A stretch of DNA of 43,907 nucleotides from assembly GCA_029567095.1 (NCBI GenBank), contig JAKQLP010000077.1:1-43907 (forward strand), in the 5' to 3' direction. Below, one piece after another: positions 7,457-37,916 of the stretch. The position numbers and the translations under genes are program-made. Source of the stretch: a bacterium. Its GTDB lineage: Bacteria; Patescibacteriota; Dojkabacteria; B142; OLB20. The notes below the pieces were generated by a model that ran no database searches, was not told where the DNA came from, and worked only from the letters and a program-made list of their open reading frames with translations. Each line of letters opens with the position of its first letter. Positions within the stretch are counted from its first letter, which is position 1.

Positions 7457-8473
7457 TTATTTTACCTTTTTAACAGACTTCTTTGAAGCTGGTTTTTTTG
7501 TTGATTTAGCTACTTTAGTTTCTTTAGCTTCAACAGCATCACTTTTTTGGCCCTTAGCAGCCTCCTCCTTCACTAACTCTAAAATTCCTTTTTGAGCTAG
7601 GTTCTTTTTACTAGGTCTTGGTTTTGCTTTGACAACAGGCTCACTCTTTTGGGTATCTGAAAGTGCGACTTTTTCTTCAACAGCATCAACCTCAGCTTCT
7701 TTTTTAATTATCTGAATCTCCTGATTGGAATAATCCTTGAATACATGCTTGACACCTCTTCCACCATTCCCAATTTTAATAGCATTTGAAAGCACACCTA
7801 AAATCAAATCTAGAGATTTAAGAGCATCATCATTGGAGGGGATTACATAATCTACTAAATCCGGATCTGAGTTTGTATCTACCATTGAAATGATGGGAAC
7901 ATTTACCGCCTTTGCTTCCAGAACAGCCCCTTTCTCATAATGACAATCAACAACAATTACCGCAGAAGGAAATCTGTCCATCGTCTTAACACCTTTATAT
8001 ATTCTGTTCATTCTCTCCCACTCTTTCTTCAGCTGATTAATTTCAAATTTAGTTCTATTTACAACACCTTTCTCAAACTCTTGTTCTATTTCATTAAATC
8101 TAGCTAAGGACTTCTTTACCATTTTGAAATTTGTAAGAAGACCACCCAGCCATCTGTACGTAACAAAATATGAGCCCGATTCAACAGCATACTTCTCTAC
8201 GATTTCCCTGGCTTGCCTTTTGGTTGCTATAAATAATATTGGGCCTCTTTTTGCAGCTTCAGTCAAAAACTTAGCAGCTTCTTCCAGCATGGGAATTGTT
8301 TTCTGGACGTCAATAATATGGATCTTGTTCTTAACGCCATAGATATATGGCTTCATTTTGGGATTCCATCTGACGGTTTCGTGTCCAAACTGAACTCCGG
8401 CTTTTAATAAATCTTTAATCTCTGGGATAGTGACCTCTTGAGGCACTAAATTATTTGAAGTTTTTTCTTCCAT
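7457..8473 (-). CDS. rpsB: 30S ribosomal protein uS2 with long C-terminal extension
   Basis: LLKAGVQFGH, WNPKM, RWLGGLLTNF, VDTNSDP, PSNDD. Confidence 0.98.
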   Translation of the reverse strand: MEEKTSNNLVPQEVTIPEIKDLLKAGVQFGHETVRWNPKMKPYIYGVKNKIHIIDVQKTIPMLEEAAKFLTEAAKRGPILFIATKRQAREIVEKYAVESGSYFVTYRWLGGLLTNFKMVKKSLARFNEIEQEFEKGVVNRTKFEINQLKKEWERMNRIYKGVKTMDRFPSAVIVVDCHYEKGAVLEAKAVNVPIISMVDTNSDPDLVDYVIPSNDDALKSLDLILGVLSNAIKIGNGGRGVKHVFKDYSNQEIQIIKKEAEVDAVEEKVALSDTQKSEPVVKAKPRPSKKNLAQKGILELVKEEAAKGQKSDAVEAKETKVAKSTKKPASKKSVKKVK

Positions 8474-8479
8474 GTTATT

Positions 8480-8547
8480 CTCCTTTATACCTCCACCCTT
8501 TCAGCTCTTTATGAGCAAGGATAAATTAAAATGGGTGTGTGAATTTT
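8480..8547 (-). promoter_or_regulatory. rpsB (S2) leader RNA
   Basis: Reads UUCACACACCC...GGGUGGAGG then SD AAGGAG, resembling the conserved S2-leader ends; extended -10 TGATATAAT at 8552-8560. Confidence 0.7.
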
Positions 8548-8765
8548 CGATATTATATCATATTTCCAATCAAATTGAAGAGCCGGCATTAAATATCGTA
8601 TCAATACAACAACGCCAACACCCATTCATTCGTTCGTCAATTATCAAATTTATTAAACAATGCCGTCGGACATATTGATGATAGGCCGCAAAACAATCAC
8701 CAATTTTTCAATATAGCGCCATATTATTATTTACAAAAGTGGGAAAATACAAAAAAGCTGCGAGA

Positions 8766-15918: not shown

Positions 15919-16027
15919 TTGGGGTATCTTGTAAAATCGTTTAATTGTAGCATTGATATATGAATATTGTATAGATTAGCAACTTTAAACAGTAGTTTCT
16001 TAAACTAAAAAATGCTATACTTAAAAT

Positions 16028-16178
16028 GCCCTATCTTGTTAGTAGAATAAGTTTCATTGAACTCTACAAGCAATTAAAAGGGAGGCCAAAATCTCATTAG
16101 GATATTATATTTTAATGCTGAGGTCACCCACCTAACTTGAAAGCGGTTTCAAGTACTTATTCGAAAGACGGATAGGGT
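16028..16178 (+). ncRNA. ssrS: 6S RNA
   Basis: Terminal stem GCCCUAUC/GAUAGGGU, inner GAAUAAGU/ACUUAUUC, 6S-like GGGAG...CACCCACC...GCGGUUUCAA; extended -10 TGCTATACT at 16013-16021. Confidence 0.75.
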
Positions 16179-16188
16179 TTATTATTGC

Positions 16189-34758: not shown

Positions 34759-36204
34759 TTATAAATCTTCGTGCAGAGTGGCTAAGAATTCTTTATTGGT
34801 TTTAGTCTTCTTCAACCTGTCGATCAACATCATTGTCGCCTCATCTTCTTTGAAGATATCCAACATTCTTCTAACTCTCCAGGATGAGTTTAAGACCTCC
34901 TTAGAAAGCAACCTGTCTTCATTTCTAGTACCAGATGCTTTAACATCGATAGCGGGAAAAACTCTCTTCTCAGCCAAACGCCTGTCTAGCTTCAATTCCA
35001 TATTGCCCGTACCTTTAAACTCTTCAAAGATAACCTCATCCATTCTACTACCAGTTTCAACCAGAGCCGTAGCAATTACTGTTAAGCTACCACCTTTTTC
35101 AAAGTTTCTGGCAGCACCAAAAAACCTTTTTGGTGGATAAATTGCAACAGGATCAAAACCTCCGGATAAAGTCCTTCCAGAAGGAGGAGCAGTTATATTA
35201 TATGCTCTAGCCAATCTAGTTAAACTATCCATTAAAATTACCACATCATTACCTAGCTCGACCAACCTTTTAGCTCTCTCAATAGCCATTTCTGCTATTT
35301 TAGTATGCAACTCTGGAGGTTCATCAAAATTAGCTGCCACAACCTCACCTTTAACAGATCTTTCCATATCAGTCACCTCTTCTGGTCTTTCCCCAACCAA
35401 TACAACCATCAAATGAATTTCGGGATGATTTTTTGTGATGCCATCTGCTATCTCTTTTAACAACCAAGTCTTTCCTACTTTCGGGGGGGCAACAAGCATT
35501 CCTCTTTGCCCCTTTCCGATAGGTGAAAGCAGATCGATCAACCTTGTAGAAAGGATATGAGGTTCAGTCTCCAATTTGATCATCTCATCAGGAAAGATGG
35601 GGGTTAATCTATTAAAACTGGGTCTAGTTAAGGCATCATCAGGGCTCGTATTGTTAATTGCTTCTATCCTCAACATGGACAAGTATCTCTCGCCCTCTTT
35701 TGGAGCACGAGCCTGACCGGAAATGAAATCACCCTGCTTAAGATTAAACCTTTTAATTTGAGATCCAGAGACATAAACATCATTATCTCCCGGCAAAAGC
35801 TTTAAAGTTCTTAATACACCGTGAGACCCATCATTAATGATCTCTAATACACCTTCTGCGAAAATATTACCTCCTCTTTTTGTCTGCTCTTCTAAGATCC
35901 TAATTATCAGATCATTTTTATTGTAATTTGCATTATCAGTAATATTCAGCTTCTCAGCTATATTTCTAAGTTCCATCAAAGATTTCTCATCGAGCTCTTT
36001 AAGGGTCATAGCTTTAGCTATCTTATCTTTTTCGAAGCCATTGGTTTTTACAGCAACAACAGGCTTAGCAGCAATTGCTGTTTCTTCCTTTGAAGGAATA
36101 ACTGAACCACCTTCTTCAACTAAGGGTAATTTAACTGATTCTTCAGCCATTTTGGGCTGCTTGGTTAATCTTGCGCCAATACGCTTTTTCTGTGCATTCT
36201 CCAT
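34759..36204 (-). CDS. rho: Transcription termination factor Rho
   Basis: [50 protein letters not shown]. Confidence 0.98.
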
Positions 36205-36299
36205 GTCGGTATAGATGTATATGAATTAAATGATGGAAAGGAAAGTCATAAATATATGAATGAAATTGTTGGGAAATTACTTGGTAGTTAATCTAAAAA

Positions 36300-36328
36300 A
36301 GTATAGAAAAATGGGAAATGGATGTCAA
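36300..36328 (-). promoter_or_regulatory. rho promoter
   Basis: TTGACA-17 nt-TATACT. Confidence 0.8.
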
Positions 36329-36331
36329 GGT

Positions 36332-36517
36332 TTTAATAATTAGGGATCGGCACTGCCCCCACCGACCCCTATTAAAACCCCTAATGTATTAGGACTTTGC
36401 ATAGGAACCGGTGCTACTTATCTTCAAATCCAAGAGCCCAGTTGATTTCAATTCTGATTACAGAACTGGATGTACGCGAACCAGACTCTGGGAACTAAAG
36501 ATAAGCAAATTATTAAA
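36332..36517 (-). ncRNA. Unassigned structured non-coding RNA (~186 nt)
   Basis: 10-bp closing stem, 29-bp arm with 6 G-U pairs, three further hairpins, own consensus promoter. Confidence 0.7.
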
Positions 36518-36527
36518 GAACAGCTAT

Positions 36528-36556
36528 ATAATATCCTATAATAAAATAACTGTCAA
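36528..36556 (-). promoter_or_regulatory. Promoter for the unassigned ncRNA
   Basis: TTGACA-17 nt-TATTAT. Confidence 0.8.
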
Positions 36557-36617
36557 GCCCATAGTAAAAGAAATTAATGGAATGATACAGCCACCAACTT
36601 AAATTGATCTTAACTGG

Positions 36618-37916
36618 TTATTTAAATACTAACCCGAGTTGCCCTACATGGGAAATTTGAGGAAATTTCTGCCTGAATGTTGAATACCCCAACCTCTTGC
36701 ACTCTTTTTCCATCTGTACAGCTCGCTTATTGACCCTTATCTGCCCTGTTAACGATATTTCTCCAAACGCAATCATATTATCTGGCAATGATTTGCCCAC
36801 TACCGAGGAAATGATAGCCAACACAGCCGGCAGGTCCAACAAAGGCTCAGACGCTTTTAATCCTCCAGCTATGTTCAAATATACATCTTTGTCATATAGA
36901 TCAAATTTTGTGTACTTAGCAATAATAGCGGCCAGGACCTCTAACCGGGTACGAGACACTCCTTCTGCAACCCTTTTTGGTAATGGAAAGAATGTTTTAG
37001 AACTCAAAGCTTGCATCTCGATCAGCATCAATCTATCACCCTCCCTGATCACCCCCGGACAAACTCCAACCGGCTGCTTCTCTTTATTCTCCAAGAAATA
37101 CAAAGACGGATTACTTACCTCTTGCATGCCCTCCTCTGTCATCTCGAATACTCCGATCTCATTTGTGGGCCCGAATCGATTTTTCAAGCAACGCAATATT
37201 CTAAAATCCATCTTTTGATCTCCCTGCAACTCAAGCACGATATCTACCAAATGCTCCAGCAACTTAGGCCCAGCAACAGCTCCTTCTTTTGTAACCTGCC
37301 CTACTAGGAACAGAATCACTCCATGCTCTTTGGCAAATTTGATCAACTTAGAAGACACTGCTTTTATCTGAGCGATCCCTCCTGGTAACCCTCTAACCTC
37401 CTCTGAATATACGGTTTGAATAGAATCAATCACTACAACCTGAGGATTGGTCTCTTTTATCTTCCTGATTATTGATCCTACTTCAAAGCCACTTAGGATC
37501 TGCAAGCCTTCATAGTTACTCAACTTCAAGCGCTTTCCCCTTAAAGCAACCTGCTGTAAAGACTCCTCAGCACTGACATAAAGCGAGCTCGAAGAAGCTG
37601 CTATGACCTGCATTAATAAAGTTGATTTTCCAATTCCGGGTTCGCCACTTATTAAGACCACTCCTGAAGGCACTAATCCTCCCCCCAAAACCCTATCAAA
37701 CTCATTGAAGCCAGTTGAGATCCTTTCTAAGGCTTCATCACTAACATCCTTTAGATGTTTCAACTTTAATTCACTTCCCCCTATTTCCTCAACTCCAATA
37801 GAAGCATCAGTTTCATCGAAAGTATTCCATTCTTTACAATTGGGGCACTGCCCCATCCACTTCAAGGATTCATAGGAACAGCTATTGCAAACAAAGATCT
37901 TGGAATTTTTACTCAT
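36618..37916 (-). CDS. radA: DNA repair protein RadA/Sms
   Basis: C4 zinc finger, GEPGIGKSTL, IDSIQT, KNRFG, Lon-like GEISLTG. Confidence 0.97.
   Translation of the reverse strand: MSKNSKIFVCNSCSYESLKWMGQCPNCKEWNTFDETDASIGVEEIGGSELKLKHLKDVSDEALERISTGFNEFDRVLGGGLVPSGVVLISGEPGIGKSTLLMQVIAASSSSLYVSAEESLQQVALRGKRLKLSNYEGLQILSGFEVGSIIRKIKETNPQVVVIDSIQTVYSEEVRGLPGGIAQIKAVSSKLIKFAKEHGVILFLVGQVTKEGAVAGPKLLEHLVDIVLELQGDQKMDFRILRCLKNRFGPTNEIGVFEMTEEGMQEVSNPSLYFLENKEKQPVGVCPGVIREGDRLMLIEMQALSSKTFFPLPKRVAEGVSRTRLEVLAAIIAKYTKFDLYDKDVYLNIAGGLKASEPLLDLPAVLAIISSVVGKSLPDNMIAFGEISLTGQIRVNKRAVQMEKECKRLGYSTFRQKFPQISHVGQLGLVFK

Follow-up and report, generated by a model that had tools for sequence, protein, structure and literature searches.

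The 413-nt gap between radA and rho on the minus strand of this dojkabacterial contig holds an RNA and two near-consensus promoters, and raises the question of whether the RNA is a gene of its own, a leader of rho, or something of both. It precedes a gene that controls transcription termination genome-wide, in a group of organisms, the CPR bacteria, for which we know of very few regulators and almost no described non-coding RNAs. We analysed the locus within a window of 43,907 nt (the whole stretch of DNA under study), which belongs to a host genome (G000) of 1.04 Mb in 143 contigs that is 94.9% complete. The features are collected in Table 1, in which the start of the RNA is inferred from the promoter, at about 7 nt after the −10 box.

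Table 1 Positions of the RNA, its parts and its neighbours in the window
Feature	Position	Strand	Details
radA, 432 aa	36618-37916	minus	upstream neighbour of the RNA
Promoter P1 of the RNA, TTGACA-17 nt-TATTAT	36556-36528 (−35 36556-36551, −10 36533-36528)	minus	score 11/12
RNA	~36521-36332, ~190 nt	minus	between the two promoters
boxA-like element GUUCUUUAAUAA	36510-36521	minus	predicted transcript start
Long arm (module A)	36415-36507	minus	proximal 12 bp covary; distal stem UCCCAGAGUCUGG / CUGGGCUCUUGGA nearly invariant
Internal loop of the arm, 5′ side UUCGCGUACA	36471-36480	minus	invariant; within the invariant block 36494-36472
Apical hairpin of the arm, variable	36449-36468	minus	absent in L007, L010, L014 and L020
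Alternative (antiterminator-like) helix, 5′ strand CACCGGUUCCUAU	36401-36413	minus	predicted to pair with 36372-36360
Small variable hairpin enclosed by the alternative helix	36379-36394	minus	present in the fold; 70% paired on the MAFFT alignment
3′ hairpin (module B)	36342-36370	minus	10-bp stem; loop GGGGGCAGU at 36360-36352
A/U-rich tail after the 3′ hairpin, probable 3′ end	36331-36341	minus	includes the partner strand of the first proposed closing stem
Promoter P2 of rho, TTGACA-17 nt-TATACT	36328-36300	minus	score 11/12
5′ leader of rho from P2, G-poor	36293-36205	minus	
rho, 481 aa	34759-36204	minus	downstream neighbour of the RNA

A first-pass annotation, made from the sequence of the window, had proposed a structured RNA on the minus strand with its own promoter before it and a separate promoter of rho directly after its 3′ end. 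Both promoters were borne out, and the fold of the minus strand (−72.8 kcal/mol, z = −6.19, with 0/200 shuffles as good) was far more stable than that of the plus strand (−46.6 kcal/mol, z = −2.15). The arm of 29 positions that it had described (36507-36479 paired with 36443-36415) was recovered exactly, with 21 Watson–Crick pairs, 6 G-U pairs and 2 mismatches, and the asymmetric loop, the apical hairpin and the two smaller hairpins downstream of the arm were all present where it had placed them. A promoter scoring at least 10/12 precedes the RNA at 26/33 loci of the host's class, and a promoter of rho lies between the RNA and rho at 26/33; the latter type of promoter is absent from six of the seven class loci at which rho is not downstream. 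In two true metatranscriptome runs, contigs from the region cover only codons of rho (35900-36221); the other two sequencing runs in the set of RNA runs are probably DNA.

Homologues support the two main modules of this fold. Pairing in the arm reached 95% across 37 model-aligned homologues, with 17 of 24 pairs changed on both sides, a level of covariation that 0/500 shuffles attained; controls in which the strands were slid against each other were 30-49% paired. Aligning 20 homologues recovered a consensus made up of the arm and the 3′ hairpin. Within the class the 3′ hairpin is invariant, and across lineages 7 of its 10 pairs show compensatory changes, with 95.7% paired; its loop, GGGGCAGU, is likewise invariant, and the loop core GGGCAGU never varies. 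The 5′ side of the internal loop and the distal stem of the arm are invariant save in one family (f4). Two other elements of the first proposed fold fared less well. The closing stem (36517-36508 with 36341-36332) was paired in only 59.8% of cells among 20 homologues and was weak outside the genus, and for the suggested pseudoknot between GGGGGC and GUUCCU no conserved loop partner was seen by eye in 30 homologues, GGUUCCUAU pairing instead with the 5′ half of the last hairpin.

A DNA search found the RNA region, with two almost invariant blocks, in 45 of 61 related genomes, which are not independent of one another, so that all counts given here overstate the support. In a phylum sample of 151 genomes, the full-length covariance model matched 7/7 members of the class and 8/144 others, and a hairpin-only model matched 17 genomes, 6/7 class members and 11/144 others; the full-length model also matched 3/3 genomes of family f4. 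Genomes outside the class have the hairpin alone, which by eye starts about 7-9 nt after a −10 box, with no space ahead of it for a boxA or an antiterminator. In family f13 the arm occurs without the 3′ hairpin, and three genomes of one genus subclade (G011-G013) lack the RNA altogether, with neither module found. Titles of sequences matched in an exact-pattern scan name Dojkabacteria/WS6, WWE3, CPR3, Microgenomates, 'Saccharibacteria' and the Patescibacteria group.

No Rfam family (Rfam 15) reached its gathering score at the locus, and the whole window yielded only six tRNAs; a search of the locus with its flanks also gave no match. Over positions 36150-36700, searching at E ≤ 10 returned no bacterial family, only miRNA, snoRNA and lncRNA noise with a best E value of 0.49. 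The RNase P RNA and tmRNA of the host genome lie at other loci. Full-text searches of the literature on non-coding RNAs, structured RNAs, T-boxes and SRP, Ffh or FtsY in CPR bacteria, Patescibacteria and Dojkabacteria found no description of the RNA, and passages of PMC8155191, PMC10768705, PMC8321541 and bioRxiv 10.64898/2026.10.21.760802 hold nothing relevant to it. Taken with conservation and covariation, the absence of an Rfam match supports the earlier proposal of a novel or highly diverged class: the RNA is a genuine new family in Dojkabacteria/WS6-type CPR bacteria, now described by an alignment, two covariance models and a defined set of parts, among them two invariant loops and a candidate switch.

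The 3′ hairpin with its run of U has the form of an intrinsic terminator, with at least 5 U in the 8 nt after the stem in 16 of 21 representatives. The copy in the window is borderline: its tail, UAAUUAUU, has 5 U in 8, and a terminator scan of the window did not flag the hairpin. The pattern of the hairpin loop, GG..GGGGCAGTGCC, occurs once inside radA (37858, minus strand), probably by chance, and the 25 genome-wide sites of GGGGCAGT, considered as other matches to the loop, also look like chance. As a separate observation, three loci outside the class (L051, L052 and L055, family f43) carry a second covarying hairpin directly after the conserved one, which reuses the CCCUU of the first and has the −35 box of the rho promoter in its loop.

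A second helix may compete with this terminator. In the minimum-energy fold, the alternative helix takes the 5′ half of the terminator stem, and it was favoured over shuffles at p ≤ 0.05 in 15 of 27 homologues (median z = −1.98), the other 12 being not significant. On the MAFFT alignment 75.5% of its cells are paired, compared with 70.0% after shuffling and 38-52% after sliding, and one pair switches from UA in eight sequences to GC in seven; on the same alignment, double changes were not above those of shuffles, 93/500 of which reached the same count. By these sequence comparisons, a helix that would compete with the terminator is moderately supported.

At its predicted start the RNA carries a dodecamer that we take to be boxA-like, from its resemblance to the boxA consensus and to an element of the genome's own 16S leader, where GCUCUUUAACAA (C4:15884) differs from it at 2 of 12 positions. 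Such an element, with at most 3 mismatches and at a fixed distance from the arm, was found in 14 of 32 homologues, against 3.1% of random 43-nt windows; it is poor (at least 4 mismatches) in the other 18. A loose form of the boxA-like pattern occurs 34 times in the genome.

Gene order ties the RNA closely to rho. In the same orientation as the RNA, rho follows it at 36 of 44 loci (35 of 43 distinct places), and it stays there while the upstream neighbour changes (radA, clpC and others). In an independent pattern scan, rho was found 86-1020 nt downstream on the same strand at 66 of 79 loci that were CPR-named or unnamed, and 8 of the remaining 13 are cut near the end of the locus; chance hits in genomes named for other phyla had rho downstream in 0/40 cases. 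Four genomes of family f10 and at least one of family f16 nevertheless carry the RNA with no rho downstream, at scores of 102-148 bits and with both modules in the four f10 genomes and at 72.8 bits in the f16 genome. In three of these f10 genomes and the f16 genome (G029, G047, G055 and G050), rho is on another contig; no copy of the RNA was found beside the relocated rho genes, and unrelated genes follow the RNA (unknown ORFs, an MFS transporter and enzymes on the opposite strand). An element that served rho purely in cis would be expected to have decayed in such lineages, which favours autonomy of the RNA. The earlier view of a free-standing RNA gene rather than a leader thus holds in part: its own promoter, the U-rich tail, the separate promoter of rho and retention of the RNA without rho speak for it, but the constant neighbourhood of rho, the competing helix and the boxA-like start speak for a leader.

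We therefore put first, tentatively and at a little under an even chance, a reading that combines the two: a rho-coupled leader with a conditional terminator, the released product of which has an autonomous role as well. Its own σ70-type promoter would drive the RNA, and the 3′ hairpin would act as an intrinsic terminator that ends most transcripts, giving the product of about 190 nt. Should the alternative helix form instead, polymerase from the upstream promoter would read on into rho, and with this read-through beside its own promoter rho would receive a regulated input as well as a constitutive one. In its boxA-like start and its arm the RNA is reminiscent of nut/rrn-type antitermination sites, and such a site could make read-through transcripts Rho-resistant in the G-poor leader of rho. 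As selection still maintains both modules in genomes where rho is no longer next to them, the released RNA probably also acts alone; it may do so by using its two invariant loops to bind a protein or a second RNA, and we favour Rho and the Nus factors as candidate partners. The strong promoter of rho itself makes read-through unnecessary for rho expression. If the RNA does gate or buffer rho or titrate termination factors, it would be a lineage-specific means of Rho homeostasis. By eye, the leader of rho downstream of P2 is not only G-poor but C/U-rich and rut-like, and an AUUUCCC motif recurs near P2 or near the start codon of rho in relatives.

The closest parallels are nut/rrn-type antitermination leaders, in which boxA and an adjacent hairpin are read by NusB–S10 and partners. 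As in these, a boxA-like dodecamer stands at the predicted start of the transcript, a hairpin comes next and a G-poor untranslated stretch follows downstream. Here, however, over half of the homologues have a degenerate form of the putative element, which is separated from the gene by a terminator-like hairpin and a second promoter; boxB-type hairpins, moreover, are far shorter than the arm of the RNA. With terminator/antiterminator attenuators and riboswitch platforms the locus shares predicted mutually exclusive helices that use the same 5′ half of a GC-rich hairpin before a U-rich tail, and with the autoregulated rho leaders of enterobacteria and Bacillus it shares a position in front of rho. 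In those leaders, autoregulation works through Rho-dependent attenuation and is not known to use an intrinsic terminator. From both kinds of system the locus differs in that rho retains a promoter of its own beyond the candidate switch.

The strongest alternative, unlikely in our judgement though one to be reckoned with, is a purely trans-acting small RNA or RNP component, for which adjacency to rho would be inherited gene order and the terminator constitutive. The RNA's own promoter and terminator-like 3′ end, together with the promoter that rho has to itself, would suit such a gene, as would the high-scoring copies of both modules in f10 genomes without rho downstream, the rho genes found on other contigs and the heterogeneous genes that follow the RNA there. 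G044 adds a second copy of the arm module, with a promoter-like site of its own, before a gene for a CsoR-type repressor and then an HMA-domain gene (L217, contig C97). What this reading leaves unexplained is that rho stays constant downstream across distant lineages while the upstream gene changes, that the alternative helix overlaps the terminator, and that the product outside the class would be only about 35-45 nt long; boxA, furthermore, acts in cis in the systems known to have it, and the RNA has a boxA-like start.

The released product might also be a trans-acting regulator of an undescribed kind, a quite unlikely proposal as it stands: either a decoy for Rho or the Nus factors, which would do for termination what 6S RNA does for initiation, or a small RNA that docks by 12-19 bp on the apex of Stem I of the serS T-box or, in another family, on the dnaA leader. 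Docking of this sort would mean a small RNA acting on a riboswitch-type leader and so tied to tRNA sensing.

The opposite extreme, a purely cis-acting leader or attenuator of rho with a functionless released RNA, is improbable. It would account for the linkage to rho, for the competing helix, for the boxA-like start and for a hairpin close to the promoter in genomes outside the class, but both invariant modules have been retained where rho is elsewhere, with no common gene after them, and a promoter of rho lies downstream of the element.

We also consider it doubtful, to much the same degree, that the RNA is a base-pairing small RNA with the invariant internal loop as its seed and, as its target, the apical loop of the serS T-box Stem I or, in another family, the dnaA leader. 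The serS leader of the host genome (contig C56, about 8412-8668, plus strand; locus L192) is T-box-like, with a GGUGGCACC motif, a terminator and a U-run, and its Rfam score is sub-threshold; a short Stem I is capped by a 14-nt apical loop, GUACGCGAACCAGA, to which 17 nt of the RNA (36485-36469) are perfectly complementary. Complementarity to the serS leader extends over 16-19 nt in G001, G002, G007 and G017, and the 12-mer was found in 14 of 45 serS leaders examined, 13 of them from family f1 and the other from G017. Across the 61 genomes this 12-mer has 70 sites in 36 genomes, compared with 2 for a reversed control. Two f10 genomes (G047 and G038) have 14-17 nt of complementarity about 75 nt before dnaA, which by eye extends into positions that differ between their small RNAs, and in G020 both partners have changed at the same paired positions, one change being compensatory and one not.

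Several results count against such targeting. A 17-mer repeated elsewhere was found for 475 of 3000 random 190-nt segments, and because 16% of random segments hold one, the 17-nt match is statistically weak alone. Half of the proposed seed is taken up by pairs of the arm itself. In G011 and G012 the serS leader retains the motif with the small RNA absent, and in family f2 the motif upstream of serS has the same sense as the small RNA and is not complementary to it. Similar ...GAACC distal loops occur in other T-box leaders of the host genome, so that the motif could be a property of T-boxes as such; besides the serS leader, G000 has three weak T-box matches, on contigs C70, C66 and C126. The RNA shares with T-box Stem I (RF00230) this motif of 12-17 nt, in complementary sense to the serS apical loop, but its own locus has no RF00230 match at E ≤ 10, and no specifier loop, T-box sequence or aminoacyl-tRNA synthetase gene was seen there, the downstream gene being rho.

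Three further observations concern these motifs. As a partner of the T-box apex, tRNA-Ser was set aside, with only 6-7 nt complementary. About 180 nt upstream of serS in family f2, loci L233-L235 have a conserved hairpin that contains the 12-mer in the module A orientation and resembles the f1 T-box Stem I in reverse complement; no T-box sequence follows this hairpin. In f10, loci L216 and L218 carry a 13-mer about 75 nt upstream of a dnaA-like start, beside ...TTGTGGATAA..., which resembles a DnaA box.

That the RNA is a strongly diverged universal RNA, SRP RNA or 6S RNA, is very improbable, since even at E ≤ 10 the locus matches neither SRP model (RF00169, RF01854) nor the 6S model (RF00013), and the architecture is branched rather than a rod with a central bubble. 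Its size of about 190 nt would suit either. SRP RNA is a tempting identity because neither the host genome nor any genome of the 151-member phylum sample matches an SRP model, and the RNA resembles bacterial SRP RNA in having a conserved hairpin with G-rich invariant loop residues. It has, however, no GNRA-type tetraloop hairpin, and SRP RNA is unlikely because the SRP proteins that would bind it were not found: neither Ffh nor FtsY was found in the genomes searched, the Ffh M domain was found in 0/151 phylum genomes, no SRP54-type GTPase scored over the cut-off in G000 or five other genomes, and no ORF contained a DTAGR-type motif. SecY is present in the genome. Absence of the SRP pathway, if not a search artefact, would be remarkable for a whole phylum.

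With 6S RNA the new RNA shares its length, a promoter of its own and a conserved vicinity to one gene, but not the fold. The first-pass annotation had placed 6S RNA elsewhere in the window, at 16028, and a match to the Rfam 6S model does lie at 16025-16182 (plus strand), just before a tRNA cluster; it is nonetheless sub-threshold, at 30.9 bits against a gathering score of 46.4, with an E value of 1.5e-4 that comes from a 501-nt search. A search of the whole genome at E ≤ 0.001 returned no 6S RNA and missed this match, a result that taken alone would speak for a 6S identity of the new RNA. In three other genomes that carry the RNA (G017, G044 and G052), 6S matches occur at loci of their own.
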